From: a bacterium
GTDB taxonomy: Bacteria > Electryoneota > RPQS01
Reading direction: 5' to 3'
DNA: 64,000 nucleotides
Assembly (NCBI GenBank): GCA_013360195.1
Contig: JABWCQ010000011.1
Coordinates: 32,671-96,670, forward strand
Part shown: one piece after another, positions 5,843-60,143 of the stretch
Layout of the letters: every line of letters starts with the position of its first letter
Numbering within the stretch: position 1 is the stretch's first letter
The notes under the pieces: generated by a model
The model's database searches: none
The model's input: the letters and a program-made list of their open reading frames with translations, nothing else
What the model was told of the DNA's origin: nothing
Translations under genes and position numbers: made by a program

Positions 5843-5890
5843 AGCAGATTACAGGATTGTCAAAGCTGATTAAAATTGTCATATTAGAAA

Positions 5891-37300: not shown

Positions 37301-37500
37301 CACGTCATCAACGTGTAACCGTTGGCATCCGTGTACGCGGCGCGTTGCCACTCGATGTGATGGCCTTGCCTTATCGGGCGTCCCGGGGGACCCCATTGGC
37401 GGGGATCGTCAGCGAACGATACACTCACGTTCCACAGCAGACCGACCGTGCATAGCAGCAGTGCGAAGTACCTCAATGAGGCGGTGCTGGGTCTCTTCAT
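34375..37500 (-). CDS. Large secreted repeat protein (about 16 W-x-D-x-R / D-[IV]-[YF]-[AG]-Q units, propeller-like) with T9SS sorting domain
   Basis: ATG 37500 (GAGGAG 9 nt upstream) gives the signal peptide MKRPSTASLRYFALLLCTVGLLWNVSVSFA. A unit of ~50-60 aa recurs about 16 times (see findings). The C-terminus reads FPNPFNPTTEFRF...KKMVLIK. Confidence 0.75.
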   Translation of the reverse strand: MKRPSTASLRYFALLLCTVGLLWNVSVSFADDPRQWGPPGRPIRQGHHIEWQRAAYTDANGYTLMTWSDTRTGDRDVFAQLIEPDGDLAPGWPVHVINYPFRQEDPEPIVTDGGFIIAWIDFRYDSTGDVFAQKLDYTGAKLWHPDGMIVDTNTTSMTNETTLRGATDGSGGAIVAWEDTRRGDAADIYAQRILSNGQRGWGSVVSVTDASGVQTGITADTDGQGGLIVGWNDNRDGGNVFAAKITNSGTLPWGGVGGRAVCDFTSRQLGLKLCPDYTTGGAYFIWQDERDGTSNNLYMQRFNGAGDAQWTEDGIVVCNANDDQRGARITPSFNNDAQDGVLTCWQDVRENGSVEEVFAQKTNAAGSHLWTANGVKVCGNAGPGGTGESRDNSRLTSDLAGGGMYVWDDTRHDAGDITQYNTYIQHLNASGVQQCGDCGVAVNTGNNQQQEAVLRMSGDGSDVFCIYADFYRGSRTVRVAQCNLATCVVERDQEIIFGLDGDATSPMNVRMFWGNVAFVWEDNRGVNYGKQIYYQVLDTTYDRTFPHIPENGSPIAPVSVAGDVFGQAKPFVCTDDNNGFYCVFENLADGLIQIRLQRVGQNGHLACDSAGAIVSASGVDQKDAQVVPDGAGGCYVVWAGFDQNFQLDVYAMRMNADCEPMWNEPALLSSDATSDDSNPFAVADGNGCVVAVWQTGEFGQLDVRAAKVCGDGTVAWQTAVSTAPRNQQEPQIAADGQGGVYLVWTDDRDEIQSKDIYGQRLNAAGQAQWTNNGRLIVTFAQDQKLPRLAVDSQSRVFVVWQDFRNGANLDLFGQKLNPDGSRIWPEQTGRWICGANSDQSDQQLLVEWSDGLYMVWEDGRTNPYSDIYGLHLDEQSNIAEPWWDQSSGETPLGGAINVEYQNQNQPALAHDYHGGVSAVWVDWRSSGKEPLQNIWGNWVNDYTVSVRELPAPMPREYMLTQNFPNPFNPTTEFRFTLPATEAVRIGVFNTLGQLVSTLVDEVMHAGTYQVRFDASELSSGTYFYRLETPSFQTVKKMVLIK
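34378..34635 (-). other. T9SS type-A C-terminal sorting domain of the repeat protein
   Basis: EYMLTQNFPNPFNPTTEFRFTLP...SGTYFYRLETPSFQTVKKMVLIK. Confidence 0.75.
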
Positions 37501-37582
37501 CTTGCCTGACTCCTCTAACTGATACAAAGGGGAATAAAAAACAATATCTTAAGTTTCTTCGAAAACATTCTTCCAGTCTGTG

Positions 37583-44295: not shown

Positions 44296-45549
44296 TTATT
44301 CGTAGCGCAGCGCTTCAATCGGATCAAGCCGTGAAGCTTTGACAGCGGGCCACATGCCAAAGCCGACACCGACGAAGGTGCAGAAAATTGTCGCCAGAAA
44401 GACCGCCCACACCGGCACAGGGGCGGGGAAATTCAAGTTGTTGTTAATGAAAATTGCGATGCCGTATCCAAGTGCGATACCAATTGCGCCGCCGACCAGC
44501 GACAGCGTCGTCGCTTCAATCAGAAATTGCCGCAGAATCGAACCGCGCGTGCCGCCCAATGCTTTTCGAACGCCGATTTCACGCGTGCGCTCTGTCACTG
44601 ACACCAGCATGATATTCATGATTCCAATCCCCGCGACGAGCAGCGAAATTCCGCAAATTCCGAATGCCGCCACACCAATCCATGACGTCTGCTCGGTGAA
44701 CTGTTTCTGCATCAAATCCGGTGTCCACATGCCGAAGTTGTTCTCTTCGCCGGGACGCAATCCGCGAATGACGCGCATGGCCTCGACAACTTCCGACTGC
44801 GCCTTGCGAAAGGCTTTCGGGTCCCATGCCTGTACCGTCAGGTTAACCGACTTTTCGCCGTATATGCGCTCAAAGGTCGAAAACGGAATCCAGTTTTCTC
44901 TGTCCTGAGACTCGCCGAACATTTCGCCGCGCTCCTCGAACACCCCGACGACTTCAAACTTTTGTCCGTCCACGCGAACGAACTGACCTATCGGATCGGA
45001 TCCGGCAAACAAAGTTTTATAAGCGTCGAAACCAAGCACGATGACCCGACGCGCGGAGTTGATATCCTGCTGGGTTATCGGCCGTCCCATCACGGTGTAG
45101 CGGGAGTTGTTTGTGCCATACTCGACTGAACCACCGGCAACCTGCTGGTCTGCGTTTGTTTCCAGGCCACCGCGAGTAATACGCAAGCCGAAGGTCCAAG
45201 CTTCGACGCCCACAGCGCGCACAGAGGGACAGCGCTGTCTAATCTCATTGGCATATGAAGCCTCAATCTTTGGCCGCCATTTACGCCGGCGCGGTCCAAA
45301 CTGAATGCCGCCTTCACTGTCGTAGCGCTGCACTTGAAAAACGTTGGCTCCCAGGGAGTTCAACATCGCGTCATCAATCTTATACTTGATCCCGCCAAGG
45401 ACGGTCATCATCGAGATAATTGTCGCAACACCGATGACAACGCCTACGAGCGTAAGAAATGCGCGCATCTTGTGCGCCCGCATAGCTTCAAGAGCCATGC
45501 GGAACGATTCCCAATATGACGAAAGTTGTCTGAATAGTTTCTTGCCCAT
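44296..45549 (-). CDS. ABC transporter permease, MacB/FtsX type
   Basis: 417-aa ORF with an N-terminal TM helix, a MacB-type periplasmic domain and a C-terminal FtsX 3-helix bundle (TERTREIGVRKALGGTRGSILRQFLIEA). Confidence 0.85.
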   Translation of the reverse strand: MGKKLFRQLSSYWESFRMALEAMRAHKMRAFLTLVGVVIGVATIISMMTVLGGIKYKIDDAMLNSLGANVFQVQRYDSEGGIQFGPRRRKWRPKIEASYANEIRQRCPSVRAVGVEAWTFGLRITRGGLETNADQQVAGGSVEYGTNNSRYTVMGRPITQQDINSARRVIVLGFDAYKTLFAGSDPIGQFVRVDGQKFEVVGVFEERGEMFGESQDRENWIPFSTFERIYGEKSVNLTVQAWDPKAFRKAQSEVVEAMRVIRGLRPGEENNFGMWTPDLMQKQFTEQTSWIGVAAFGICGISLLVAGIGIMNIMLVSVTERTREIGVRKALGGTRGSILRQFLIEATTLSLVGGAIGIALGYGIAIFINNNLNFPAPVPVWAVFLATIFCTFVGVGFGMWPAVKASRLDPIEALRYE

Positions 45550-45552
45550 GTG

Positions 45553-46776
45553 CTACTCCGCGCGCAAAGCCTCTATCGGAGAAAGCTGCGCGGCTTTGAG
45601 GCTCGGGTAGAGCCCGAAGAATATTCCGACCACGGCGGAAAAGACGACACCCACAAGCACAATCCACAATGGCATGTAGGTCGGCAAGAAGCTGTTGATT
45701 GCCTGCGAGACGACGGCAGCAAGCGCAACTCCGGCAATACCCCCAATTGCGCATATCACGGCTGACTCGATAAGAAACTGCCACGCGATGTTCCAGCGTT
45801 TCGCACCGAGTGCCTTGCGCAGCCCGATTTCGGCCGTTCGTTCCGTGACGGACACCAGCATGATATTCATAATACCGATGCCGCCGACAATCAGCGAGAT
45901 AAAACCAATAATGATTCCGCCTGCATACACACCGGCCGTCATGGCGTTAAACTGTTCGAGTATGGCGGACTGTGTGTTCAATCCGAAATCGTTAGCTTCC
46001 CAGGGCTCAAGATGACGGAGCCTGCGCATGATTCCCGTAATTTCCCACTGAAGTTCTTCAATACGATCCTCACCGTGTCCTTTTGCCACAATTGTCAAGC
46101 CGTCAAAATTGCGCCCGGCGAATCGCTTCTGAAACACGCCGTATGGAATCACGCAGAAGTTGTCCCAGCTCTGACCAAACACCTTGCCGTATTTCGTCGT
46201 GACCCCGATTACTTCAAAGTTCCATGCGCCGATCTTCAGTTCCTTGCCAATTGGAGACTGGTCGGGGAAAAGCTGACGGGCGATGTCCGGGCCGATCACG
46301 GTAACGTTGGCGTTGCGCCTGACTTCCTGAGCGGTGAAAATCCTGCCCTCGGCAAGTTCCTTGGGGTTCGTCAGGAAAAATTCTTCGGAGACGCCCTGAA
46401 CGTTAACGCGCGAAAGCTGTGCGCCGCGATAGGAGACGGTCATGTGCTGGTCGAAGAACGGTGAAATTGCTTCGATTTCACGCGACTCCTTGCGCAACTC
46501 GTCGATGTATTCCAGCTCCATGTCCCGCCGCTTCAGCATGTCGCGCCAATCGTTGCTCTGCCAATCCCAACGGGAAATGAACACTGTTTCGGCGCCAAGG
46601 AAGTCCAACTGACTCTTGAGGGCCTTATTCAGACCCATCACGATCACGACCATCATGATAACCGTCATAACGCCAATGACAATTCCGAGTGTCGTAAGAC
46701 CCGCGCGCAATTTATTCGCGCGGAGAGCTCCAAAGGCTATCCTCAGACCGTTGATGACGTCGGTTAAAAATCGCAT
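45553..46776 (-). CDS. ABC transporter permease, MacB/FtsX type (paralogue)
   Basis: 407-aa ORF with the same architecture (TERTAEIGLRKALGAKRWNIAWQFLIES). It ends 3 nt upstream of its paralogue. Confidence 0.85.
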   Translation of the reverse strand: MRFLTDVINGLRIAFGALRANKLRAGLTTLGIVIGVMTVIMMVVIVMGLNKALKSQLDFLGAETVFISRWDWQSNDWRDMLKRRDMELEYIDELRKESREIEAISPFFDQHMTVSYRGAQLSRVNVQGVSEEFFLTNPKELAEGRIFTAQEVRRNANVTVIGPDIARQLFPDQSPIGKELKIGAWNFEVIGVTTKYGKVFGQSWDNFCVIPYGVFQKRFAGRNFDGLTIVAKGHGEDRIEELQWEITGIMRRLRHLEPWEANDFGLNTQSAILEQFNAMTAGVYAGGIIIGFISLIVGGIGIMNIMLVSVTERTAEIGLRKALGAKRWNIAWQFLIESAVICAIGGIAGVALAAVVSQAINSFLPTYMPLWIVLVGVVFSAVVGIFFGLYPSLKAAQLSPIEALRAE

Positions 46777-46791
46777 GAGACCGTGCTCCGG

Positions 46792-47496
46792 TCAGGCCGC
46801 GCGGCTGACGATTTGGTCGGACTCGATGAGACCGTCGCGCAGTCTCACAATCCGGCGCGCATGACGGGCGATATCCTCTTCGTGCGTGACGAGAATGATC
46901 GTGTTGCCGTTCTCGTAAATCTTCTCGAACAGCTGCATGATTTCATCACCAGTTTTCGAGTCGAGGTTTCCGGTGGGTTCGTCGGCAAGAATTATGGAGG
47001 GATTGGTGACAAGCGCGCGTGCAATGGCCACTCGCTGCCGCTGGCCGCCCGACATTTCATTCGGTTTGTGCTTCATTCTGTCGCCCAGACCTACGGCCTC
47101 CAGCGCCTCCTTCGCGCGCCGGCGCCGTTCCGAGGGGGATTCACCTGCATAGACGAGAGGGAGTTCCACGTTTTGCAGCGCCGACGCGCGAGGGAGGAGG
47201 TTGAAGGTCTGGAAAACAAATCCAATGCGGCGATTGCGAATCTCGGCAAGCTGCCGGTCGGAAAGGTGTGCCACGCGCTCGCCGGCAAGGATGTACTCGC
47301 CGGACGTCGGTGTATCAAGGCAGCCGATCAGGTTCATCAACGTAGATTTGCCGGAACCGGACGGACCCATGATGGCCACGTAGTCGTTCTCTCGGATGTT
47401 CACGTTGACTCCGCGCAGTGCTTCGACTTTTATAGTGCCCAGGTCGTACACCTTGCGCAGGTCCTGAATGTCAATTATCGAGCGGCGTTCAGCCAT
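46792..47496 (-). CDS. ABC transporter ATP-binding protein (MacB/LolD-like)
   Basis: Walker [11 protein letters not shown]-loop, signature [15 protein letters not shown] and Walker [12 protein letters not shown]. Confidence 0.92.
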
Positions 47497-47541
47497 ATAA
47501 CTAGACCGTAAAATGCTTGATTGGTTGCGGGACGCGGGCGA

Positions 47542-48831
47542 TTAGCCCTGCTCTTTCTCGTCTTTTTTGTCCTTCTTCTCTTCGAGCGCGACTTTGTCCT
47601 GGTCCTTCATGTCGCGGGCAAGACTGCGATACGGACCCGTGATTATCGAGTCGCCGTCGGATATACCGGACAACACTTCGATAAACCTGTCCGCGGCAAC
47701 TCCGGTCTTGACGGGCGTCCACGTGGCAACTCCGTTAACAAAGCGGAAGACTCCTGTCTCAAGTTCATCCGATGCGGCAATCTTCGTTGTATCTATCGTT
47801 CCCGCACGAACCTGCTCCGCCATCTGACGGGAAGAGAGCTCCTCTTTTTCGCGCGTGAGCGTTACCGCCTCGCCTTCCCCCTTTTTGCGCACGGCAACGG
47901 ATTGAATCGGCACTGCCAGAGCGTTATTCCGATAGTCCGTTTCGATGTCCACAGTTGAGGACATGCCGGGGCGAATACCGGGAACTTGATCAATCAGCAC
48001 GACGCTGACCTCAAAATTCGTGGCCGAAACCTCCGCACCGAAATCACCGGAGCCGGTGATATTGCTGGCCGATTGGGCAATTTCGCGCACCAGCCCGCGA
48101 AAGGTCGTATCCGGAAATGCGTCAATCTCGATGCGGGCGGTGTCATTCATAGACACGTTGACGATGTCATTCTCGTCCACATTAGCTTTTACTTCCATGA
48201 CGCTCAAGTCGGCAACTATCAGAATCACGTCTTCCTGAAACTGGGAGCCAAGCGTCAGCTCGCCAACTTCCTTATTAAGAACAGAAATCGTTCCCGACAT
48301 CGGAGCATTCAGTCGCGTTTTGCTCAGATTCTCCCGTGATTGACGCTCGTTCGCCTGAGCACGCTCAAGGTCCGCTTCGGCAAGCTGAGCGGCCGCAAGC
48401 ATGGCGTCAAGGTCCGCCTGCGAAGACATCCCGCGAGACACAAGCTCGGACACTCGCTTATAGTCAGCGTCGGCCTTCAGCTTGCTCGCCTGCGCGGATT
48501 TCAGCGCTGACTTGGCGGCATCAAGCGCTGAGATATAGGTTTCAGGGTCGAGTTCAACGAGAAAGTCTCCTTGCTGAACAACATCGCCTTCCTTGACGGC
48601 AAGCTTGATGATGCGGCCGGGAATTTCGGCGGAGACCTTGACCTGAGTAACCGGCTCTATCTTACCTTCTGCCGATACAGTGGCAACAAGCTGCCGGTAC
48701 GCGGACGTCTCGACCGTTACCTGTGTCGCGGGCTTTTCCTTGTTCTTGTTCTGCTGATAGGCAGCGACGCCACCGACAACCACCAAGACTGCGATGACGA
48801 TCCAGAGAATTTTCTTAGATTTTCTTGACAT
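47542..48831 (-). CDS. Efflux transporter periplasmic adaptor (HlyD/MacA family membrane fusion protein) with K/E/D-rich tail
   Basis: 429-aa ORF with an N-terminal anchor, a lipoyl-like half (VKEGDVVQQGDFLVELD), a long alpha-hairpin and a beta-barrel domain. It is the first gene of the ABC operon. Confidence 0.85.
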   Translation of the reverse strand: MSRKSKKILWIVIAVLVVVGGVAAYQQNKNKEKPATQVTVETSAYRQLVATVSAEGKIEPVTQVKVSAEIPGRIIKLAVKEGDVVQQGDFLVELDPETYISALDAAKSALKSAQASKLKADADYKRVSELVSRGMSSQADLDAMLAAAQLAEADLERAQANERQSRENLSKTRLNAPMSGTISVLNKEVGELTLGSQFQEDVILIVADLSVMEVKANVDENDIVNVSMNDTARIEIDAFPDTTFRGLVREIAQSASNITGSGDFGAEVSATNFEVSVVLIDQVPGIRPGMSSTVDIETDYRNNALAVPIQSVAVRKKGEGEAVTLTREKEELSSRQMAEQVRAGTIDTTKIAASDELETGVFRFVNGVATWTPVKTGVAADRFIEVLSGISDGDSIITGPYRSLARDMKDQDKVALEEKKDKKDEKEQG

Positions 48832-49023
48832 GTTTTAACCAATTACTCATCAAGTTCAAGTGTGCGGCCAGCTTTGCTGGACGCATTTCCGGCCACCCCG
48901 GCGGCCTTGTTATGTAGGAGAGACCTACCCTGCGAAATGTTGCATAGTAGCTTCACCGGGTGGTCCCAAGCTTGCACATACTCTGCGAGTTAAGTGGAAA
49001 AGCATGAAAAAAGGAGCCATCGC

Positions 49024-51600
49024 ATGACCCCTGCCAAGCCCACGCCTGGCGCTGAACTCGTGGAACCGTTGCGCCAATTCTTAGAGTCTTTCACGCAAGA
49101 GCTTACAGAACAACAGTTTATACCTGCGTTTCGAGGTGAACTGGGCAAGCTCGCGGAGGGTCTCGATAATATACAGCAGTCCGGCGAAACCTTGCAACAG
49201 ATTGCGAAGGGCGTCGAAAGACTGCGGGAAGTGTTTGCCCCGGCGGGCACCCGAATGCTTGAAGGGGTCAAGGATATCGAGGAGCAACTCAAGTCCGGTG
49301 GTGAACAAATGCGCGCCCGAGCCGAAGAGGTGCTCGGACAACTCGCCGCAACACATCGCGAACTTGATCAAGCACTGCGGGCTGAAGCGGGACTGCTGGG
49401 AGAGCAGACTTCCACCAGCCGCGACGCCTTAACGCGCATTTCCGGGGAGATTGACGAACAGTTGCGCAGTTTCTCCTCCAAGCTCGACAACTTGTGTCGC
49501 AAGGCCGAACAGGAAATCCATCAGCTCAGTCAGCTCTCCGCCCGCGCTATCGAGCAGCAGGCGACGTCAGTCGCCGCAACATCCGAGACCGTTCAAATGC
49601 CGGCGACGGCATTCCCCAACCCTGCCGAACTATCGGAGTTGATGAGCCGCACTGAGTCCACGGTATCCGAAGAACTGGCGCGGCACTCACAGCAGTTGAG
49701 GGAACTGCTTTCCAACAACACACGCGATCACAATGAACGGCTGGCACGCATTGACAAGACCATTGACGACGCTCTCCGTGCCGTTGCACCCAAAGTGCAG
49801 TCTGAGCTTGACAGCGCGCTGCAGCGGCTGCGTGATCAAATGGATGCGATGGTCAGAGTTGAGCGAGAGGTCATTCAGCAGCAGCAGGAGCATAATGCGC
49901 GGCAACAGGAAGAGAACGCGCAGCCGGCGCCTGCTCCGGTCATTGATTCGTCCGCGTTTGTCTCAGCGTTGGGCGGTATCGAGAACCGTGTGCTGCGCGA
50001 GTTCGACGAATTGCGCAAAGCCAGTGTCAATGAGCTGAATGAAATCCAGAAAAGTCTGGCGGACTTCGCTCTCGATCTTGCGGACATCACTGAAAAACAA
50101 ACTGAGCGTGTTCAAAACGAACAGCAGTCGGTCAAAGAGCTGCTCGTCCGGCTCGAGCGATTGAGTAAAGAACGCTCGACGACGCTTGCATACATCACCA
50201 AGCAGGTCGGTGAAAACAGACAACAGTTCGATCAGCTCGTCACGCAGAGCGCGCAGACCACAAATCAGGTCGTGCAGCACTTCAATACGTCGCTCGAACA
50301 GATAAATTCACAGAGCCAGCAGCTGCATCAGCTTGCCGACAATGCCGACGCGTGGTTCAACAAGCTGACATCGCTTCTCAATCACACGGAAGAGCAAATC
50401 GGACGGCTGCTTGATCAACAGAACAACGAGTCGCGTCTGGTGCGTGAACGCATTGACGCCGGAGTCGCGGATCTCCGGGGACGTTACGACGGGCGGTTTG
50501 ATCAACTTGTGCAGCGCAGCGAAGAGATCGCAGGAAGATTGGGAAGCGATTTTCAGGGACATCTCGAATCTCTGAAACATGAGGTTGAGAACCGATTGCA
50601 CCAGATGAGCGAAGCTTTGAACGCGGATTTGCAGCGGTACGAGACTGTGATCCGTGAACAGAGCAAGCAGCAGGAAGCGTCGGCTCATGATCTCGCCAGC
50701 GAGGTATCCCGTGCGGCGAATCTGATTGACGAGAAACTCTCGGGCTTCGAATCAAAACGTGAGGAGAATGAACGATTCACGCGCGCCATCGAAGGTCACG
50801 TCAAAGTCGTCGCAACCGAAGTCAGTGCGCTGCGTTCCAAACAGCAGGAGCAACTGGAGGTCCTGAAGGAGGCGATTCGCGCCAATTATGACGATAATGC
50901 CGCCCGACTGAAAGAGGTCATTGACGGCGCGTACGACCAATTCCTTGAACAGATTCGCACAGTTCCGCAGGCGCTCGAACGCTACTCGAAATTCGTCGAG
51001 ACAATGCACCAGAGTAACCAGCTCGCTTTGCAGGGCATCTCCGGTGACACGACGAATCTCCTGACTATCGCGCAGGACATCAAGAGTGAGACGGAGACAC
51101 AGAAGAAGTTCTTCCCGCTGCTGAATAAAATGATGGAAAAGCACTCGCAGGTTCTTGAAGCAGTGCGCCGTTCGCAGTCGGATCATGATAAGAATTTCGC
51201 CCACGCGGCGAAGTTTGACAAGGATTTCCACGAAGAATTCGGAAAGACACTGGCCGATTTGAAAGGCGAACTGCGCCGCGTTGAAGGAGCGGAGCAGTCC
51301 AAGCTTGCCGAACTGACACAGATGCACATGTCGACCTACTCGGAGCTCGAGAATCTGCAGCGCAATGACTTGCCTGCCTTCAGGCGAGAGGTCATACAGC
51401 TCATTCAGTCCAAATTTGAGTTCATCGAAAATACTCAGGCCGAACGGCAGACCGCCATGCGTGCCGAGATGGCGGCGAGACTTGACGCACAGGAAACCGC
51501 TGCGCAAAAGCATTTCAAACAGCTTGTCTGGCTTGTGGCAGGTGCCGCGCTGCTGCAAATCGCTCTGCAAACCAATCTACTGGCCTTAATCGGCTTCTAA
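49024..51600 (+). CDS. 858-aa tail-anchored coiled-coil protein, no recognisable family
   Basis: ATG 49024 has AAGGAG 7 nt upstream; the track start GTG 48994 has none. There is no signal peptide. The protein is Q/E/L/A/R-rich and helical throughout, with one C-terminal hydrophobic segment, LVWLVAGAALLQIALQTNLLALIGF. Confidence 0.7.
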   Translation: MTPAKPTPGAELVEPLRQFLESFTQELTEQQFIPAFRGELGKLAEGLDNIQQSGETLQQIAKGVERLREVFAPAGTRMLEGVKDIEEQLKSGGEQMRARAEEVLGQLAATHRELDQALRAEAGLLGEQTSTSRDALTRISGEIDEQLRSFSSKLDNLCRKAEQEIHQLSQLSARAIEQQATSVAATSETVQMPATAFPNPAELSELMSRTESTVSEELARHSQQLRELLSNNTRDHNERLARIDKTIDDALRAVAPKVQSELDSALQRLRDQMDAMVRVEREVIQQQQEHNARQQEENAQPAPAPVIDSSAFVSALGGIENRVLREFDELRKASVNELNEIQKSLADFALDLADITEKQTERVQNEQQSVKELLVRLERLSKERSTTLAYITKQVGENRQQFDQLVTQSAQTTNQVVQHFNTSLEQINSQSQQLHQLADNADAWFNKLTSLLNHTEEQIGRLLDQQNNESRLVRERIDAGVADLRGRYDGRFDQLVQRSEEIAGRLGSDFQGHLESLKHEVENRLHQMSEALNADLQRYETVIREQSKQQEASAHDLASEVSRAANLIDEKLSGFESKREENERFTRAIEGHVKVVATEVSALRSKQQEQLEVLKEAIRANYDDNAARLKEVIDGAYDQFLEQIRTVPQALERYSKFVETMHQSNQLALQGISGDTTNLLTIAQDIKSETETQKKFFPLLNKMMEKHSQVLEAVRRSQSDHDKNFAHAAKFDKDFHEEFGKTLADLKGELRRVEGAEQSKLAELTQMHMSTYSELENLQRNDLPAFRREVIQLIQSKFEFIENTQAERQTAMRAEMAARLDAQETAAQKHFKQLVWLVAGAALLQIALQTNLLALIGF

Positions 51601-51613
51601 GCGGAGCGACCCA

Positions 51614-53167
51614 ATGCCTGAACGATTTCAGAAATCCGCCTCCGATGCCGTCGCGTTCATGTCCGGTATTCTCGGCTTGTCCGAGCATGACAGCAGCCGA
51701 ATCGCGTCACCGCAGATGCTCGAAATGCTCACCCTCTGTCGTGAAACCGGATTGCGATTGCCGACTCTCGAAGTTTTCAGCAAAGTGTGCGACAATGGTC
51801 TTGCTGTAACCCTGCTCGGCGGCGACGCGGAGTTGGCGAAGAACTTAGCGCGCTGCGTCGGACTTACAGCCGATTTGCAGGACATTCCGGAAACACCGCT
51901 CATCTGGTGGATTGAATCCGCACGCTCCACCCGGACCGTCGTCGAGTTCGGCGCCACCGAACGCGAGTTATCAGAGACAGCTCTCAACGCCCTGTTATCC
52001 ACCGCATTGCCTCCCGACCGCGTCACCGTCGTACGGCGGAAAGTCGAATCAGATTCGGAGTGGCGATTCGCGTGGCTCCCGGATATCGACTCGCTTGTCA
52101 ATCATGCCGCATGGCCGGCCGTCTTGGAAACCTTCATCGGCGCGCAGGTGATGATTGCGATTCGTGATGAACTCCCCGCAGCATTTCAATCCTGGTTCTC
52201 ACGTCCCGGAATGATTGCCCGACAATACTCGGCTACGGAGATTGTGCGCGACGACGTGAGACCGGTTCTCTTCAGCGAATTGTGCGCCATGCGCGAGCAG
52301 TCCTTCGCAGAACGGGAGGCGATGATCGCCGCAACATGGAGCTATCTGATTCCAAAGTTAGTGGACCAGCTTGACGCCCTGCGGCAACAGAATACGATTG
52401 AAATTGACCGTCAGAACATGAAGCTGCAGTTGACGCGACAGACTCTGGGGGAGTACCGCCGCAACTGGAGCAACGGTATCCGAAACCTGCTTGACGACTT
52501 CTTCAACAAGAAGAACTCCGGCACCGCCATGTCCGCCTTGATTGATCCGAGGCAGCCCGGCCCGCAGCCGGGCACATATCTGCAAGCTTTGGCACTTCCT
52601 TCGCTGTGGAAGCAATTGTCGGAGCTCATGAATGAACGACTTGGCGAGTTTGTGCAGGGACTCGGCGCGCTGGCAATTCGCGTGGAATTGCGCAGCATCT
52701 CGCTGAAGGATTTTGACATGAAGTGGAATCCCTCCTCAATCGCGCAATCCCTCGAAGAAGAGCTGCTGTCGCGGCGGGTTTTCAGTGAAGGGGGAGGCGC
52801 GCGCGCGGGAATCGTCGGAGCCTTGATCGGAAAAAGTGAAGAGATTGCGGGACTGCGCCGCGGTCAAATCGTGCGCGCGAACAAGACAGTGCAGCAGCAA
52901 ATCGAACAGGATTTTCTCGAATGGGCGGACAGGTTGTTTCACTCCATCGAACAGCGGGTGCGCGTCCAAATCGCGGCATCTCAGGCCAATCAGGGCTTGC
53001 CTGATATTGAAACACTGCGCACAAGCCTCACCGGAATCGATCGTCTGACCGCTATGCTGGAAGGAAACCGCGAAGGCGCCCGCGAAGAACCGGTTCGCCG
53101 AGTCGCGCAATTGCTCCGGTCGTGGAGTCAAAGACGGTGGATTAGACGATATCTGCCGGCTGCATAG
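51614..53167 (+). CDS. Hypothetical protein; N-terminal region resembles a bacterial dynamin-like G domain with degenerate G1/G3 motifs
   Basis: 517-aa ORF starting 13 nt after the coiled-coil gene. LAVTLLGGDAELAKNLARCVGL, RFAWLPDIDSL and AQVMIAIRD lie in the positions of the P-loop, DTPG and post-G3 strand. A long helical C-terminal part follows. Assignment is by eye only. Confidence 0.45.
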   Translation: MPERFQKSASDAVAFMSGILGLSEHDSSRIASPQMLEMLTLCRETGLRLPTLEVFSKVCDNGLAVTLLGGDAELAKNLARCVGLTADLQDIPETPLIWWIESARSTRTVVEFGATERELSETALNALLSTALPPDRVTVVRRKVESDSEWRFAWLPDIDSLVNHAAWPAVLETFIGAQVMIAIRDELPAAFQSWFSRPGMIARQYSATEIVRDDVRPVLFSELCAMREQSFAEREAMIAATWSYLIPKLVDQLDALRQQNTIEIDRQNMKLQLTRQTLGEYRRNWSNGIRNLLDDFFNKKNSGTAMSALIDPRQPGPQPGTYLQALALPSLWKQLSELMNERLGEFVQGLGALAIRVELRSISLKDFDMKWNPSSIAQSLEEELLSRRVFSEGGGARAGIVGALIGKSEEIAGLRRGQIVRANKTVQQQIEQDFLEWADRLFHSIEQRVRVQIAASQANQGLPDIETLRTSLTGIDRLTAMLEGNREGAREEPVRRVAQLLRSWSQRRWIRRYLPAA

Positions 53168-53191
53168 TCCTCCGATTTTCCTTATTTCCTG

Positions 53192-53220
53192 AACGGCTCG
53201 CCTGATTGGCGGGCCGTTTT
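53192..53220 (+). terminator. Intrinsic terminator closing the two-gene operon
   Basis: AACGGCTCGCC (53192-53202), TGATT loop, GGCGGGCCGTT (53208-53218). The stem has one G-U pair and is followed by TTTACTTG. Confidence 0.65.
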
Positions 53221-53272
53221 ACTTGTCTCCGCCTTGCTTTTCCGCTTGTTTTTTGCCTAATTTCAAGATTAC

Positions 53273-55177
53273 ATGCGTAATCTGACCCGACATATCGCAC
53301 GGACAGCCGCTCTTGCCGCACTGCTGCATGTGTTTTCAGCACATGCTCAGTTCACTCTTCAAGAATATGAGTCCTGGCAAAGATATACCGGCTGGCCAAT
53401 TCGAGTGGTCGAATTCCCCGGTGTTGACGCTTTCGCCCGTGCGGACGTGCTGGAAGTTATGGCGACGGAAAAGCCGACGTGGCTCCGCCGCTACTTGCCT
53501 CTGGGGTCTCGCACAACGTTCTATGCGGAAGACTTCGCCGCCGATCTGATTCGAGTGCGGAATTTCTATGCACGGGAAGGATTTCCCAATGCCATCGTGA
53601 CTGGAAAGGTCATTCCGCGCGAAGACAAGGAAGATTTAAGGCTGGTCGTGCAAATCGATGAGGGGAATCCGCTGATTCTCAGACAGTGGAGCCTCCGCCA
53701 AACCGAGGGCTCAAATGCCGGTGTGGACTCCGCCAGATGGTCGGAGCGGTTGCCCATCCGCATTGGCAAGCGGTTATCCCAAACAGATCTTCAACTTGCC
53801 GCCGACACGCTGCGCTACAAATTGCGATTGATTGGCCATGCGCGTGCCGAAGTGAGTTTTGACACCCTGAATGTCATGAATGACTCGGTCGATGTCGTGT
53901 TTCTGCTCGACAGCGGGCCGTTCTGCCGCTTCGGTCAAACTCGAATCACCGGACTGAAGCAAGTTTCTGAGGAAACGGCGCGACGGGAAATCGCATATAA
54001 GGAGTATGCGCCCTACACTCCGCTGCTGCTCGATGAAACGCGGAAGCGGCTGTTGCGGCTTGAAACGTTTCGGATGGTGCGCGCCGACGTGGACTTGAAA
54101 CAGGAATCAGATACCCTCGACGTCCTCATCCGCACGGAAGAGGGGAATCGCTATATCGTTCGAACCGGTGCGGGATATGACACCGAAGAAGGCGTGCATA
54201 TTTCCGGCGAACTGAGTGATTTGAATTTTTTCGGCAGAGCTCGCCGATTCACTCTGGAAACCGGCGTCTCCAATCTCATCAGTGATCCGCAGCGGCTGGA
54301 CACAGCCGGGCTGTTCAACGACACAAAAGAGATCGACCGCAAGGTCGGCTTCACACTTTTTTGGCCGCACACGCCGCTTGACGCCACCGATATCACCATC
54401 GCGCCGTCATGGGAGTACGAGTACAACGTCGGAACCATTGTCACCACTACTTCTGCGAATACAAGCGTCTCATCATCACCTTTGCCAAAGGTCGCCGTTT
54501 CTCTCTCCAACGAATTCGGACGGCAGGATGTGCGGATTGATTCAGTGGACAGCGAAGGACGTGTCAGCACCATCTCCATCGAGAGTTTCGCCTTCGGATG
54601 GGACACGCGCGACAATCCGCTCGTTCCCCGGCGCGGACAGGTTGTAAGTCTATCGCTCGCGGAGTCAGGGCTGTTGTGGAAGCTTGATGACCGCTGGTGG
54701 CGGGCAACAGTCGGAGGAAGACTCCTCATCCCGGCCAATCGATTTACGGTGTTTGCCATGCGCAGCGAAGTGGGATTTATGGGAACTCTTCACGAATCCA
54801 CGCAAACTCCCGTTCAGGAGCGCTTCAGGCTCGGCGGTGTTTCAAACATTCGCGGCTGGGGAAGAAACCTCATCGGGCCGCGTGCCGCTGAAGACGACAA
54901 GCTTGTGCTCGGCGGCAATCATTCGCTGTTCGGGACTCTCGAAGTGCAGCGTGAAGTCTGGGGTCCAATGGCGATGATTCTGTTCGCGGACGCCGGCAAC
55001 GTGTGGCCGGAAGCCAAGAACGCGCGGTTGGACGACTTGTATACCGCTGCAGGACTTGGACTGCGCTTTCTCACACTCATCGGGCCGATACGTGCCGACT
55101 TCGGCTATCAATTGCGCCAAAATGAGTTTGGCGAGCGGCCGTGGGCTATTCATATTCTCCTGGGGTCGGCATTCTAA
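53273..55177 (+). CDS. Omp85 family outer-membrane protein, TamA/BamA-like (POTRA domains + surface antigen D15 barrel)
   Basis: 634-aa ORF with signal peptide ...HVFSAHAQ. It has POTRA-like repeats (IRVVEFPGVDAF..., RLVVQIDEGNPL..., VVFLLDSGPFCRFG...). The barrel contains RFRLGGVSNIRGW and ends in the beta-signal ...HILLGSAF. Confidence 0.8.
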   Translation: MRNLTRHIARTAALAALLHVFSAHAQFTLQEYESWQRYTGWPIRVVEFPGVDAFARADVLEVMATEKPTWLRRYLPLGSRTTFYAEDFAADLIRVRNFYAREGFPNAIVTGKVIPREDKEDLRLVVQIDEGNPLILRQWSLRQTEGSNAGVDSARWSERLPIRIGKRLSQTDLQLAADTLRYKLRLIGHARAEVSFDTLNVMNDSVDVVFLLDSGPFCRFGQTRITGLKQVSEETARREIAYKEYAPYTPLLLDETRKRLLRLETFRMVRADVDLKQESDTLDVLIRTEEGNRYIVRTGAGYDTEEGVHISGELSDLNFFGRARRFTLETGVSNLISDPQRLDTAGLFNDTKEIDRKVGFTLFWPHTPLDATDITIAPSWEYEYNVGTIVTTTSANTSVSSSPLPKVAVSLSNEFGRQDVRIDSVDSEGRVSTISIESFAFGWDTRDNPLVPRRGQVVSLSLAESGLLWKLDDRWWRATVGGRLLIPANRFTVFAMRSEVGFMGTLHESTQTPVQERFRLGGVSNIRGWGRNLIGPRAAEDDKLVLGGNHSLFGTLEVQREVWGPMAMILFADAGNVWPEAKNARLDDLYTAAGLGLRFLTLIGPIRADFGYQLRQNEFGERPWAIHILLGSAF

Positions 55178-58100
55178 TGTGGAAAGTGCTGGCAAGACTT
55201 CTACTATGGCCGCTAACGCTGGTCGGTGCGCTGCTTGCAGGTGCGTTTTTTTTAATTCAGCAGGAACCGGTACAGCAAGCCGTGGCGAAAAGAGCCTTGA
55301 AGATTCTGAACCGCAAGATCGCCGGCAGCATAGACGTGAAACACGTTTCGCTGAAGCTGCACGGCGCCGTTAACGTTGACGGTTTCGTGCTTCGTGATGC
55401 GGACGGAGATACAATTGCGACTGCTCGCCGCATCGATGCGTGGTTAGCTCCTTGGGATATTTTGCGCGGACGAGTGCATGTGTTGAAAGCCGATATCGAA
55501 GGTTTGAATGCGGTTTTTGCCATGGACTCTTCGGGAAACAACTTCGCCGGTGCGTTTGCGACAATTCCATCACAGCCTGCGGACAGCATGAAGTCGCCGC
55601 TCTGGGTACGGCTTGACAGACTTCACATGGATCTCGATTCCTTGTACGTTCAAGTTGACACGTCCTTTACGAAGTCATTCATTGAACATGCGGTTGAGGC
55701 GGACGTTCTGTTGACGGATTCTGTCATAACGTATGCACTCGAAATTGTAAAGGAAACAGATTTCCGCTTGTCGAGCGAAGGAGTTGTCCGCGTGAATTCG
55801 GACTCGCTGTTCGCCGGCGAAGTGCATTTTGACGGCTCTTCTGCGTACGTGCGGGACAATTGGGCTCCCGACCTGCCTGATCTTGGCCGCATTGAACTGT
55901 CAGCAAAGGCGGATGTTTTCACGCGAGATCTTGTGTCCCTCTTCAAGATCGAGCTCTCTAAAGTCGGTTCGCTCGGCGGTGACATCGAAATTGATGACTT
56001 TGCCGGAAGGCCGCGTGTTTCTCTCGGCGCAACCTTCACAAACATTGATCTCTCAGCATGGATTGGCGATTCGGTCGCACATCAATTCAACGGTCGAGTC
56101 GCTGTGGTCAAGAGCGAGTCGCAATCATGGCTGTACGATTGGACCGGCCGCGTCGAGTTGGACAGTTCCTTCTATGACAGTATCGGGATTGACGCAGAAC
56201 TCGAAACCGAACTCTTCGCCAACAGTGCCGCACTTGCCGGAGAGATTCGCACGAACGCCGGACAATTTGATGTGCGGCTGTTCTGCGAGGGGCTGAGTCC
56301 TGATTCGCTATCGCTTTATGGCCGCGCGGTTTTGTCAAATGCGAAGGTGCATGAGCTTGTTGCGGCCGTTCCTGATTCTCTGTCTCCGCTTTCCGGAACC
56401 GCAGAGTTTTCACTTACACGAGTTGTGCCCGATGAGCTTGAACTTGACGCCGTACTCGCACTCGGCCCGCTCTCTCTTGGACGATACAAACTTGACAGTC
56501 TTGCGTTGCATGCCGCGGTGCACGGCACTGAGTTTACACTCGACTCTACGCGTCTGCGTCTCGGCTCTGCTCATGCTTTGCTCGCGGCGCGCGGTGATTA
56601 TACCAAGAGCATCACAACGGAAGTTTCGGCTGAAATCCCTGCAGTAGAGGAGTTTCGAGATTTGCTTCGACCCTACCTGCCACAAGTTGATTCGCTCGCA
56701 GGCGGTCTCTCTGTCTCGGGAAGCGGAGAACTCTCCATTGCTGATGACTCGTTGTCAAATATTGTCGTTCGCGGTCAACTATCCAGCGAAAAACTCGTGC
56801 TTGGCAACACAACCACGCATAATTTGCTGGTTGACTGCACTATTTTCGATTTGAACGGCGAGACAATCGCAGCCGGGATTACTTGCGATTCCGTGCTGGC
56901 TGCCGGAGAAACAATAACTCCGTTTGAATTTAAGCTCAAAGGAAACTGGCTTTCTCCGGAATTTGCCTGTTCGTTTGCCGCCCGTGCGGATACTCTGCAA
57001 GTATCTGCAAATGGCAGCGCGAACTTTACCACTGAACCGTATTCCGTTGACCTTGACGAACTCGAATTGAATCTCTTCAATACGGTGTGGACAAACGATT
57101 TTCCGGTGGCTGTATCCTTTGACAGTCTGCATTATGAAATCGAAGCTCTCATTCTGCGTTCTGACTATGGTGTGCTGCGTGCGACCGGTTATCTCGAGAT
57201 TCCGGGAGAACAGGATCTTGTGATTGAATTTTCGGGCTTTCGAACAGGCGCGCTCTCTCCAATACTGCGCACAGAGATTCCTGACGGACGGCTAAACGTC
57301 CGACTGCAAGTTTCCGGACGCGACACTGCCGTCATCGGTCGTGTGGAGCTTGTCATCGACAGTGTTACCTACAAGAGCGCACATCTTGCCGATGAAATTC
57401 GCTTGAACGCGGACCTCGGTGCTGACGGTACTCTCGATGCGCGGCTGCTCTATCAATGGTATGGGGATACAGCCGCGATTGCTGCAGCGTCTCTTCCAGC
57501 CTCGTTTTCCATGGAGAACGGATTGCGCATTCCCGAAGGTGAAGAGCTCGCAGGCACATTGCAAATTGATTCACTCCCCTTGCAGAGATTCGCTCCATGG
57601 ATGTCAGCAGGGACACTGCTTGATGGCTTTCTGTCCGCAAATCTTATACTCAAGGGAAGCGCTCTTGAGCCGGATTGGGACGGCGAAGTTCATCTGGATG
57701 ACGGGTTCTATCGTGACACCCGTTTCGGTATCGCGTACAAGTGGATTGTGCTTGATGCGGATTTGCGCCGCGATTCGCTGCTCATCAATTCCCTTCGCGC
57801 GACGAGCCGCGGCACGATGACAGGTTCCGGCTTTGCCCGCCTTGGCGTACCGTGGCCTGAAGAGCTTGACATGGAACTCAAGTTCGACAGGTTCGAAGCC
57901 GTCTCTTCCCGCATTCAAAAGGCAAGACTCGACGGTGATCTGGCGCTCAACGGTCCGTTTGACTCGCTGCATGCCGCTGGACGACTGACCGTTCAGGAAG
58001 GCCTTTACCGGCTTACGCAGTCGGCTACCAAAACCATTGAGCCCGTGAATATGGACAGCGTTCTGGCCGTTCTGCGCGGAGACTCTCTTGAGGAAGGATT

Positions 58101-58872
58101 CAATACCGATGCGCTCTACCAATCCATGTCGCTTGACCTGAACGTTGAAATTCCCGGCAATTTCTGGATCCGCGGCGCTGGACTGAATACCGAGCTTTTC
58201 GGCGAACTGCGACTCGAAAAGGATCACTTTCAGGACGCCACCGCGAATGGTGAAATCGCCGTGCGCAACGGTACCGTTAACTTTTACGGTCAGGAGCTGC
58301 GTATCACCGATAATTCCTCCTTCCGCTTTGACGGACCGGTGGACTCGCCGGAACTGAATGTTTCTGCGGTTTATACCGGTGTCGAGCGTGAACGCGGGTA
58401 TGAAGTAACCGTTAAGCTGACCGGCACGCCCGATAAGTCACTTGCGGAGTTCAGCGGCAAATTCGACGACGGGACAGTCATGTCTGAGGATGAGGCAATT
58501 CAGAGATTGCTTCCTTTTGCCAATGTCGGGGACGGCAGCGGATTTGATGCCGAGCAATCCGTTGTCGATGCCGCGAGCGGCCAGGTTTCCGATATCGTCT
58601 CCAAGGCAAGCGGGCTCGATGTCTTCGAATTCCGTCCCGGACCCGGCGGCCTGAGTGATTTGTCCTCGGGACAGCTTGAGCTCGGCACCTATGTCACAGA
58701 CCGGCTGTTCATCCGGGTTTTTCAACCCATTGAAGACCCCCGCGCAGGACAGAAAGTGTCCATTGATTATCGACTGCTCGACTGGATGAAGCTTACAGCC
58801 GAGCAGGAATCGCGCTCACAAGCGACCACGAGCAGTTCGTTCACCGTCTATCTTCAGTTCGAGTGGCGCTGA
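55177..58872 (+). CDS. tamB: Translocation and assembly module protein TamB (AsmA-like, DUF490 C-terminus)
   Basis: ATG 55177 overlaps the upstream TAA (TAATG), and an N-terminal TM anchor follows (LLLWPLTLVGALLAGAFFLI). The protein is ~1200 aa and beta-rich. The C-terminus LELGTYVTDRLFIRVF...IDYRLLDWMKLTAEQE...VYLQFEWR is DUF490-like. Confidence 0.8.
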   Translation: MWKVLARLLLWPLTLVGALLAGAFFLIQQEPVQQAVAKRALKILNRKIAGSIDVKHVSLKLHGAVNVDGFVLRDADGDTIATARRIDAWLAPWDILRGRVHVLKADIEGLNAVFAMDSSGNNFAGAFATIPSQPADSMKSPLWVRLDRLHMDLDSLYVQVDTSFTKSFIEHAVEADVLLTDSVITYALEIVKETDFRLSSEGVVRVNSDSLFAGEVHFDGSSAYVRDNWAPDLPDLGRIELSAKADVFTRDLVSLFKIELSKVGSLGGDIEIDDFAGRPRVSLGATFTNIDLSAWIGDSVAHQFNGRVAVVKSESQSWLYDWTGRVELDSSFYDSIGIDAELETELFANSAALAGEIRTNAGQFDVRLFCEGLSPDSLSLYGRAVLSNAKVHELVAAVPDSLSPLSGTAEFSLTRVVPDELELDAVLALGPLSLGRYKLDSLALHAAVHGTEFTLDSTRLRLGSAHALLAARGDYTKSITTEVSAEIPAVEEFRDLLRPYLPQVDSLAGGLSVSGSGELSIADDSLSNIVVRGQLSSEKLVLGNTTTHNLLVDCTIFDLNGETIAAGITCDSVLAAGETITPFEFKLKGNWLSPEFACSFAARADTLQVSANGSANFTTEPYSVDLDELELNLFNTVWTNDFPVAVSFDSLHYEIEALILRSDYGVLRATGYLEIPGEQDLVIEFSGFRTGALSPILRTEIPDGRLNVRLQVSGRDTAVIGRVELVIDSVTYKSAHLADEIRLNADLGADGTLDARLLYQWYGDTAAIAAASLPASFSMENGLRIPEGEELAGTLQIDSLPLQRFAPWMSAGTLLDGFLSANLILKGSALEPDWDGEVHLDDGFYRDTRFGIAYKWIVLDADLRRDSLLINSLRATSRGTMTGSGFARLGVPWPEELDMELKFDRFEAVSSRIQKARLDGDLALNGPFDSLHAAGRLTVQEGLYRLTQSATKTIEPVNMDSVLAVLRGDSLEEGFNTDALYQSMSLDLNVEIPGNFWIRGAGLNTELFGELRLEKDHFQDATANGEIAVRNGTVNFYGQELRITDNSSFRFDGPVDSPELNVSAVYTGVERERGYEVTVKLTGTPDKSLAEFSGKFDDGTVMSEDEAIQRLLPFANVGDGSGFDAEQSVVDAASGQVSDIVSKASGLDVFEFRPGPGGLSDLSSGQLELGTYVTDRLFIRVFQPIEDPRAGQKVSIDYRLLDWMKLTAEQESRSQATTSSSFTVYLQFEWR

Positions 58873-60143
58873 TGCACAAGTTCATTATTCTCCTATTGTG
58901 TCTCCCTCTCACTCTGCTCTCCGCTCAGCGGGTGCAGGTGTCTGAGATTGTGTTCATCGGCAATCAGATTACACAACAGTGGGTGATTGAAAGAGAGTTG
59001 CGCTTCGATGTCGAGGACAGCGTGTCCGCCGATGACCTTGAAAAGGCCCGGCTGCGATTGCTTTCGCTCGGAATTTTTAACAATGCGCGCGTGGACTTCG
59101 ATGATGAAGGAGTCGTCACGGTGCAGGTCTCTGAGCAATTCCGCTATATCCCTGTGCTCGGGACCGATGCTGTCGAAGGGTCCTTCAATGACGCACTGAA
59201 GGAGCCGTCAAAGCTCATGGACATCGTGGTTTTCACGGCCGGCGTGGCCGACATCAATCATCGCGGAAGCGGCGCCATGGCCGGTGTGCTCGGGGAGTTC
59301 GGAGCACGTTCAGGTATCAGTGTCGAGTATCGCACACGGTGGCTTTCCGCCCGCTATCCGGTCGCGTTGAATTTCGGCGTGCGTTCAATGCGTATCTCCG
59401 ACCGACATGCCTCCGTGCTGGGATTCTCGCGCAGAATGCGTAATGACCGCGCCTTCATTGATATCGCCACACGAAGGGGAGCACCTTCGCGCGTGGGGAT
59501 GCTTCTCAAATATGATCATGTCGAAGAGTCCGAGGACTTTCCGGCCATGGGCAAGTCGTACGACGTCGGCTGGATTGCTCCGTATGTCATTCTCGATCGC
59601 CGTAATCTCGAATGGTTTCCCACGGACGGATTGTTTGCTCGCGGTGACCTTGACGCGGCATTTGGCAGCGAACTTTTCTTCCGGTCGCGCGCCGTGATTG
59701 CACGGTACCTGCCGTTCTCCGAATCCTACCGTGCAGTTACACTCGCAATGCGCGGCTACAGCGGCACGGCAAGTTCAAACACACCGCCGTGGGCGCGCTA
59801 CTATTTCGGTTTTGCGGACAAGTTCCGGGGTTATTCCAGCGAACAAACGGAAGCCGCAACCTATCTTGCCGGTGAAATTGAACTGCGGTTTCCAATCACT
59901 CGTGAATTAACGTACGATGTTCCGCTGGCCGGGCGTTACGGTGACGATATCCCCTTCTGGCTTGGCGGCGCGGTATTCTTCGAGCGTGCACAAACCCAAC
60001 TTGACGGCACCCGTAACGACCTTTACGCGTATGGAGCCGCTCTTCACATTCGCGTTCCCTATGTGCAGGTGCTCGAAGTCAGTGCCGCAGCCAACCGCGA
60101 TGACGAAAAAGAATTCGTCTTTTCAACCGGAGTGAGGTTTTAG
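58872..60143 (+). CDS. Second Omp85 family outer-membrane protein (single POTRA-like domain + barrel)
   Basis: ATG 58872 overlaps the tamB TGA (TGATG), giving the signal peptide MHKFIILLLCLPLTLLSAQ. The POTRA-like segment reads VSEIVFIGNQITQQWVIERELRFDVEDSVSADDLEKARLRLLSLGIFNNARVDF. The protein ends in ...FVFSTGVRF. Confidence 0.7.
   Translation: MHKFIILLLCLPLTLLSAQRVQVSEIVFIGNQITQQWVIERELRFDVEDSVSADDLEKARLRLLSLGIFNNARVDFDDEGVVTVQVSEQFRYIPVLGTDAVEGSFNDALKEPSKLMDIVVFTAGVADINHRGSGAMAGVLGEFGARSGISVEYRTRWLSARYPVALNFGVRSMRISDRHASVLGFSRRMRNDRAFIDIATRRGAPSRVGMLLKYDHVEESEDFPAMGKSYDVGWIAPYVILDRRNLEWFPTDGLFARGDLDAAFGSELFFRSRAVIARYLPFSESYRAVTLAMRGYSGTASSNTPPWARYYFGFADKFRGYSSEQTEAATYLAGEIELRFPITRELTYDVPLAGRYGDDIPFWLGGAVFFERAQTQLDGTRNDLYAYGAALHIRVPYVQVLEVSAAANRDDEKEFVFSTGVRF

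Follow-up and report, generated by a model that had tools for sequence, protein, structure and literature searches.

A predicted dynamin-fold pseudo-GTPase and its tail-anchored helical partner point to a possible new scaffold of the inner membrane, tied to envelope assembly, in Calditrichota/KSB1-type bacteria

The dynamin superfamily is defined by GTP-driven membrane remodelling, and a bacterial family that kept the fold without nucleotide binding would mean that such a scaffold can work without an energy cycle. Whether a family of this kind exists, and what it might do, is the question raised by a pair of genes in a 64,000-nt stretch of contig JABWCQ010000011.1 (hereafter the window, whose coordinates are used throughout; features lie on the forward (+) strand unless marked otherwise). 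Gene 1 (49024..51600) encodes an 858-aa all-helical protein with a predicted C-terminal membrane anchor, and gene 2 (51614..53167), which starts 13 nt after the gene 1 stop codon, encodes a 517-aa protein whose model has a dynamin fold. A preliminary description had placed these two open reading frames (ORFs) correctly and had proposed that gene 2 is a dynamin-like protein with degenerate GTPase motifs. That central interpretation is supported here, with refinements: gene 2 resembles dynamins in predicted structure, gene 1 matches no characterised family above cutoff, and the two genes stay neighbours in relatives. The protein-level result is solid and unusual, whereas the functional link to the neighbouring TamA/TamB (TAM) genes is genomic.

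The fold of gene 2 was assessed on an AlphaFold2 (AF2) model built from a 16-sequence alignment (mean predicted local distance difference test score (pLDDT) 82, predicted TM-score (pTM) 0.61). The model is organized into three N-terminal helices, an alpha/beta domain (~61-225) and a series of long helices (231-300, 328-356, 408-460 and 465-483), the last forming a stalk-like region annotated as aa 231-513 (52304..53152). In a Foldseek search against the PDB, all 50 matches listed belonged to the dynamin superfamily; among them were bacterial dynamin-like protein (BDLP) 2j69 (E=2.2e-10) and Campylobacter DLP1/2 (5oxf, TMq 0.40), together with IniA, MxA, Drp1, Mfn1/2, OPA1/Mgm1, SynDLP and LeoA. 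With two constructs dominated by the G domain, stalkless MxA (4p4u) and the mini-mitofusin 5gof, the alignment spanned about 300 columns, indicating that the alpha/beta domain, and not the helices alone, contributes to the match. Global TM-scores were low (0.2-0.4), as expected because dynamin proteins are hinged and multi-domain. The modelled architecture is thus that of a dynamin, with a G-type alpha/beta domain and a helical stalk bundle assembled from segments on either side of it, and its closest relatives in fold are the bacterial BDLP/DLP/IniA group. Both the dynamin-like G domain and the helical stalk-like region after it (model helices 231-483) had been anticipated in the preliminary description. 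Sequence comparison gave no such signal: gene 2 had no Pfam or NCBIfam match at E <= 1, its PDB profile search returned no dynamin at E <= 10, and no family member matches a dynamin or P-loop Pfam family.

The G-like domain (aa 61-225, 51794..52288) lacks the nucleotide-binding motifs. A comparison of 23 full-length members, with identity down to 22%, disclosed different and conserved residues where the canonical motifs would lie. At G1, the strand-1/helix-1 junction, GxxxxGK[ST] is replaced by [LIC]-G-G-[DSGQ] with the helix following directly, leaving a two-residue loop; at G3, after strand 3, W-[LIV]-P-x-P/D stands in the place of DxxG; and nothing corresponding to the G4 motif N/TKxD occurs in the first 240 residues. 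Walker A, DxxG and N/TKxD were found in 0 of the 23. In the model of the window protein, GGD (residues 69-71) occupies the strand-1/helix-1 junction and WLPD ends strand 3, so that the motif positions guessed earlier from the letters, including that on strand 4, proved essentially right, as did the call that P-loop and DxxG are lost. The motifs are missing from all 23 members, and no P-loop Pfam family is matched by any of them; nucleotide binding has therefore been lost throughout the family. By sequence and model, gene 2 is therefore predicted to be a dynamin-fold pseudo-GTPase family-wide, and it should not be filed as a BDLP.

Invariant residues of gene 2 (G69, G70, W98, D135, W150, R151, W154 and G199) cluster in the G-like domain, and within the stalk-like region a conserved Gly-rich segment, F390-K407 (52781..52834), retains F390, G394 and G406 unchanged at 25% identity. 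The protein ends in a basic-aromatic tail, RRWIRRY. Neither a signal peptide nor a membrane helix was found in gene 2; its maximal hydrophobicity (KD19 = 1.52) falls inside the G-like domain, and no hydrophobic segment is present at the stalk. The F390-K407 segment and the basic-aromatic C-terminus are candidates for a membrane paddle or hinge.

Both ORFs are real genes, because their homologue clusters are collinear over the full length (47 clusters for gene 1 and 16 for gene 2 in the first searches, the latter all about 517 aa). No Pfam, NCBIfam or PADLOC model scored above its cutoff on either gene. A profile search from a 9-sequence gene 2 alignment recovered only the 16 clusters found earlier, and the distant members were obtained through loci identified by neighbouring genes and by searching 1.84 billion protein representatives exhaustively with a HMMER profile. 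The latter gave 30 matches; the weakest (P0092), a protein of immunoglobulin repeats, is a false positive, leaving 29 clusters at 50% identity. The family is confined to uncultured metagenome-assembled genomes of Calditrichota/KSB1 type, recorded as Calditrichaeota, candidate division KSB1 or unclassified, with a few named 'Alphaproteobacteria'. Several of the records (L012, L013, L018, L019, L024, L026, L027 and L031, and also L025) are titled 'uncultured Alphaproteobacteria' or 'Candidatus Puniceispirillum'; on loci of Calditrichota/KSB1 type, these titles are probably taxonomic mislabels from automated submission. The pair had been called an orphan, which is too strong, since the two genes form a small but deep lineage-specific family. 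For the comparisons below, loci were gathered through gene 1 homologues, gene 2 and the N-terminal blocks of gene 1, scored by tblastn, and divided into three depth classes: the clade of the window (52-74% identity), KSB1-type loci (29-38%) and a third clade (about 25%).

Gene 1 has a predicted anchor at one end only. Its sole hydrophobic window is the last 25 residues (KD19 = 1.76), and a C-terminal hydrophobic segment is present in 18/18 aligned homologues; basic residues flank this segment N-terminally, and 0-10 residues lie beyond it. In the window this segment forms a predicted membrane helix (aa 834-858, 51523..51597) with a near-invariant Gln845. No signal peptide and no second membrane helix were found in gene 1. 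From the C-terminal segment, the basic residues preceding it and the short tail, gene 1 would be tail-anchored in the membrane, most of the protein lying in the cytoplasm. Its start is set at 49024, where homologues share a Met in the alignment and where GGAG (49013..49016), a ribosome-binding site 7 nt 5' of the ATG, is invariant in the upstream alignment of seven close loci; for both reasons, a longer GTG start at 48994 is not that of the gene.

Conservation in gene 1 is concentrated at its two ends. The N-terminal head (about aa 10-130, 49051..49413; ELVEPL..FLE..ELTEQQFIPAFR...LQQIARGVDRLREVFAPAGTR) belongs to a stretch of ~130 residues that is nearly invariant even in homologues at 26-28% overall identity. 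Membrane-proximal blocks (~aa 604-803, 50833..51432) contain AIRANYDDNAARLKEVID, VPQALERY, KKFFPLL and DLPAFRRE..SKFEFIE, with (near-)invariant columns at R604, Y622, L629, R653, K695, P698, R715, K797, F798 and E802. The centre (about 170-600) is variable, with a reduced length in the clade farthest from the window. In the AF2 model the protein is entirely helical; short or disordered linkers join seven helices, of which six span 91-158 residues, and Foldseek returned no matches to it.

The helix type was defined by hydrophobic periodicity. All 18 homologues analysed gave one sharp peak at 3.58-3.61 residues, with a power of 156-398, where the maxima of shuffled sequences averaged 41 +/- 12; at 3.5 (0.2-35) and at 3.67 (the 11-mer, 11/3) the power was at background. 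Local windows ranged from 3.44 to 3.66. This single 3.6 peak justifies the description 'long amphipathic helices' but neither a canonical coiled coil nor an apolipoprotein repeat. The earlier designation of a giant tail-anchored coiled coil thus stands for the helices, the absent signal peptide and the anchor, and is not supported for the coiled coil. Alignment of the long helices with one another by hhalign disclosed no internal repeats (probabilities <=52%).

Several known families were tried for gene 1 and rejected. As an SMC/MukB ATPase it scores 10-13 bits with NCBIfam SMC models whose cutoffs are 567-729 and has no Walker A, in line with the preliminary description, which had recognised no family and no SMC Walker A. 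As ZorA, only the helical tail is matched (PADLOC E = 1e-9 to 1e-5), the NCBIfam ZorA score is 24 bits against a cutoff of 190, and there is a single C-terminal membrane helix; a PADLOC JetC match likewise covers a helical tail only. The apolipoprotein family PF01442 reaches 29 bits against a cutoff of 90, with the wrong periodicity and no internal repeat. No PspA/IM30 domain was found by Pfam search. The sub-cutoff apolipoprotein, ZorA-tail and SMC matches look compositional.

The pair is predicted to be transcribed from a sigma-54 promoter, an element absent from the preliminary description. Upstream of gene 1 lies the -24/-12 sequence TGGTCCCAAGCTTGCA (48961..48976; TGG-N8-TTGCW, with TGGCAC-N5-TTGCW spacing), and TGG-N8-TTGCA is invariant in the upstream intergenic alignment of the seven close loci. 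Of 25 loci, drawn from all three clades, 23 have a strict match at a distance of 44-142 nt upstream of gene 1; the two others are each one consensus base off and keep the GG and GC dinucleotides. Although 48961-48976 is the only strict match on either strand of the window, chance alone would give the bare pattern fairly often (4.95 times per window, or about 0.014 times in a 350-nt upstream region), so the evidence is its conservation in position. A GC-rich palindrome, GGCCACCCCGGCGGCC (48891..48906; also written GCCGCCCCGGCGGC), is located some 55-70 nt upstream of the -24 box, is kept as CCGCCCCGGCGG in 5-6 of the seven close loci, and is a candidate binding site for a sigma-54 activator. 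No activator gene with a GAFTGA-type signature was found in the window.

A further upstream element, AAATGTTGCA (48935..48944), is invariant in 7/7 close loci. The surrounding sequence in the window (48915-48944) reads AGGAGAG, ~14 nt, then GAAA(T/G)GTTGCA; KSB1-type loci L001 (~7810-7840) and L020 (~3295-3325) carry AGGAGAG followed by GRAAAGTTGCA at another distance from the sigma-54 box. This AGGAGAG...GTTGCA element could be the promoter of the divergent efflux operon or a regulator site.

Downstream, the pair is followed by genes for outer-membrane biogenesis, identified by Pfam and NCBIfam: a TamA-like Omp85 with POTRA domains (53273-55177), TamB (55141-58872) and a second Omp85 (58863-60143). 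The tamB ORF has a GTG start and overlaps the end of tamA by 37 nt (55141-55177). Among loci long enough to judge, gene 2 directly follows gene 1 in 21/21, tamA comes next after gene 2 in 18/18, and tamB with the second omp85 comes next after tamA in 17/17. In the third clade the five-gene block gene1-gene2-tamA-tamB-omp85 is intact while both flanks are replaced: the divergent MacAB-type operon gives way to a co-directional adaptor and ABC-2 exporter, and the downstream pyrD is gone, which places the limits of the block at the gene 1 start and the omp85 end. The preliminary description had asked whether the pair stays together and near tamAB or macAB; adjacency and the tamAB link hold, and the MacAB-type operon is lost in the third clade. 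The divergence rate of genes 1 and 2 is close to that of TamB and far above that of the transporter genes.

How tightly the pair is coupled to tamA varies between clades. After gene 2, an intrinsic terminator with a partial U-tract (53191..53226) contains a hairpin at 53191-53219 (-22.6 kcal/mol, z = -5.5 against shuffles), and five related loci (L006, L007, L008, L010 and L011) carry a hairpin in this position whose stem differs in sequence, a sign of compensatory changes; the terminator is conserved in this way in the clade of the window. Beyond it, CTTGCTTTTCC-N-TAATTT (53233..53263) forms a promoter-like motif of invariant columns in the seven close loci, and the tamA ATG lies 10 nt past TAATTT with no Shine-Dalgarno sequence, suggesting a sigma-70-like promoter and a nearly leaderless tamA mRNA. 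From terminator and motif, the pair in this clade would be its own sigma-54 operon and tamA would have its own promoter. The earlier view of a good terminator isolating the pair is thus borne out for this clade, while 'isolated' understates the link to tamAB, the one invariant neighbour even where both outer flanks differ. At L001, a KSB1-type locus, the hairpin lies directly against the start of tamA and lacks a clear U-tract, so read-through into tamA is likely there.

We propose, as a reading somewhat better than evenly balanced, that the pair, under sigma-54 control, forms a scaffold that needs no nucleotide, sits at the inner membrane on its cytoplasmic face and probably serves TAM. A bicistronic sigma-54-dependent operon would be turned on by an enhancer-binding activator upon a signal and would supply the two proteins of the scaffold. 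The genes are adjacent in every judged locus and are separated by 13 nt or overlap by 4 nt (L001 and L005), which argues that their products work together: gene 2 may bind gene 1 and self-assemble without nucleotide, giving a static or slowly exchanging scaffold or tether, comparable to fungal Mmc1, rather than a mechanochemical remodeller. Because the pair always stands directly upstream of tamA-tamB-omp85, the scaffold would most likely organise or support the place in the inner membrane that holds the TamB anchor, and so serve the passage of lipid or protein to the outer membrane. Further still, the pair, with the dynamin-fold pseudoenzyme carried on gene 1, might be the arm of the Calditrichota/KSB1 TAM machine on the cytoplasmic side of the inner membrane, curving or organising the membrane or concentrating lipid at the TamB anchor and induced through sigma-54 for outer-membrane growth or repair; we regard this fuller version as doubtful.

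The link to TAM, drawn from gene order, is the weakest step of the proposed scaffold mechanism, and several observations weigh against it or against the mechanism as a whole. The evidence joining the pair to TAM is synteny, part of which could be inherited and not selected, since the loci all belong to a single related lineage. The N-terminus of TamB consists of a short stub, a single membrane anchor and a conserved PVQ(Q/T) motif, with no cytoplasmic domain and no clear-cut conserved polar residue seen in the anchor; as the stub is a few residues long, contact with the pair would need to be within the membrane or indirect. The contacts of gene 1 with gene 2, and of the pair with TamB, are putative. 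In the clade of the window, the conserved promoter-like motif of tamA behind a good terminator implies that the pair is regulated separately from tamAB. The dynamin assignment is a structure predicted from 16 sequences where sequence methods detect no dynamin, and the tertiary arrangement of gene 1 is unreliable in its AF2 model (pLDDT 64, pTM 0.22).

In the main rival reading, the pair would be a stand-alone inducible module for membrane stress or repair, with a role like that of Psp or DynA, and its position before tamAB would be inherited gene order devoid of functional meaning. A sigma-54 promoter implies conditional, activator-dependent expression; in the clade of the window, terminator and tamA motif uncouple the pair from tamAB; and bacterial dynamin-like proteins such as DynA reportedly protect membranes (PMC12998192). 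The five-gene block, however, is kept down to about 25% identity in loci whose outer flanks are both exchanged, which neutral gene order would not lead one to expect; a DynA-like sealing or fusion cycle is unlikely without GTPase activity, and the Pfam search leaves gene 1 without the PspA/IM30 domain of Psp. We therefore hold this module to be possible but rather unlikely. In another reading, gene 2 would not be a pseudoenzyme and would bind nucleotide or another ligand through non-canonical residues, leaving the system a mechanochemical remodeller. The clustering of invariant residues in the G-like domain is compatible with such a cryptic active enzyme, and some pseudoenzymes reportedly have relocated catalytic residues (PMC10211241). 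Yet the two-residue strand-1/helix-1 loop of the model is too short to wrap a phosphate, and no equivalents of the Lys, Ser/Thr and Asp are conserved at the G1, G3 and G4 positions, which makes an active GTPase improbable.

Two other functions, like a cryptic GTPase, are less likely than the membrane-stress module. As a cytoskeleton-like element for shape, division or the chromosome, gene 1 would be a membrane-tethered filament or ruler in the manner of EzrA or SMC and gene 2 its adaptor. The great length of gene 1, its helicity, its variable centre between conserved ends, and its weak matches to the coiled-coil regions of SMC and ZorA would suit this role, but the SMC scores lie far below their cutoffs and neither Walker A nor Walker B is present. 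No division or segregation genes were found among the neighbours of the pair in the window, and the invariant neighbours are outer-membrane biogenesis genes; we give a cytoskeletal role little credence. Anti-phage defence of a Zorya-like or DynA-like kind is suggested by the PADLOC ZorA models on gene 1 and by a reported contribution of DynA to phage defence (PMC12998192). The ZorA similarity is confined to the helical tail, with no MotA/ExbB domain, a single membrane helix and no ZorB-D partners, and gene 2 has no PADLOC match. The position of the pair is moreover fixed in the core genome of three clades, unlike a mobile defence island, so that defence is very improbable. Against these alternatives, the scaffold on the cytoplasmic face, probably serving TAM, remains our preferred reading.

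The remaining neighbourhood is consistent with the flanks named in the preliminary description, a divergent MacAB-type efflux operon on one side and TamA/TamB on the other. The efflux operon (44296-48831, - strand) encodes a membrane-fusion adaptor, an ABC ATPase and two MacB-type permeases; with ATPase and permeases on separate chains it has a LolCDE-like layout plus an adaptor, not that of a fused MacB. In third-clade loci, a co-directional adaptor, two ATPases and two ABC-2 permeases precede the block (L003/L025, 2596-7338; L024, L027 and L033, ~4900-6500). Because the third clade also has one, an adaptor-dependent ABC exporter adjoins the pair in all clades and only its type differs. Farther upstream, two large secreted enzymes, an M14 carboxypeptidase and a GH43-like protein (31891-34296 and 34375-37527, both - strand), bear type IX secretion C-terminal sorting domains, which fits an organism of the FCB superphylum. 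A 543-aa ORF (39443-41074, - strand) had no Pfam match at E <= 1e-5.

Taken with its place before tamA and tamB, the pair points to a new scaffold of the inner membrane that would be tied to building the envelope. A dynamin fold working without an energy cycle has so far been reported only for fungal Mmc1 (PMC10592917), and literature searches found no bacterial dynamin pseudoenzyme, nor any dynamin-like protein with a tail-anchored helical partner or under sigma-54 control. Reviews of AsmA-like bridges name the inner-membrane partners and the driving force as open questions (PMC10345924); the pair is a concrete candidate bearing on both, and no cytoplasmic TamB partner was found described in the literature, where a search for TamB with dynamin gave mostly unrelated word matches. 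The predicted sigma-54 promoter offers a handle on regulation; with it, the reported enrichment of sigma-54 regulons for cell-exterior functions (PMC3162934) reaches a phylum that has been little studied. If the pair were indeed the cytoplasmic arm of TAM, it would provide the first dynamin pseudoenzyme from bacteria and the first partner on the cytoplasmic side for an AsmA-like trans-envelope bridge, as well as a bacterial counterpart of the mitochondrial Mmc1-MICOS-SAM50 arrangement.

Among known systems, the bacterial DLPs are the top fold matches of gene 2 (Nostoc BDLP, Campylobacter DLP1/DLP2, Mycobacterium IniA and E. coli LeoA). Shared features are the N-terminal helices, the G-type alpha/beta domain and the long helical stalk; bacterial DLPs are cytoplasmic and membrane-associated, as gene 2 is proposed to be, and several BDLPs are likewise encoded in a two-gene operon with a partner. 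Gene 2 differs from them in lacking P-loop, DxxG and N/TKxD, in a G-like domain of only about 165 residues, in its length (517 aa against about 600-700), in having no clearly hydrophobic paddle and in a sequence similarity that is undetectable; its partner is a giant tail-anchored helical protein and not a second dynamin.

For gene 1, exchangeable apolipoproteins and perilipins (ApoA-I, ApoA-IV, ApoE, apolipophorin-III and perilipin-3), which are lipid binders with long amphipathic helices, give repeated weak matches over aa ~230-590, the PDB profile of ApoA-IV reaching E = 2e-9. Gene 1 has a period of 3.6 and not 3.67, falls below the family cutoff, is membrane-anchored and has conserved ends unrelated to theirs. 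The match is probably compositional and is kept as a description of helix type only. The psp operon is sigma-54/PspF dependent, and its PspA is a helical protein at the cytoplasmic face of the inner membrane. The pair is predicted to share this plan, a sigma-54-dependent operon with a helical protein at that face, but the proteins are unrelated, gene 1 has no PspA/IM30 domain and no activator is encoded nearby.

The closest analogue of gene 2 is Mmc1, a fungal pseudoenzyme similar to dynamin-related proteins, which works with MICOS and has been proposed to act as a nucleotide-independent scaffold (PMC10592917). Mmc1 has no Pfam domain, evolves quickly, lacks the GTP-binding motifs and has BDLP, IniA and LeoA as its top structural matches (PMC10592917). 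The parallel between MICOS/SAM50 and TamB/TamA is one of analogy only, and GTPase activity was probably lost independently in Mmc1 and gene 2. Both nevertheless combine a dynamin fold with the absence of GTP-binding motifs, the eukaryotic protein carrying its own C-terminal membrane anchor and the bacterial one relying, in our reading, on the anchor of its partner, gene 1.

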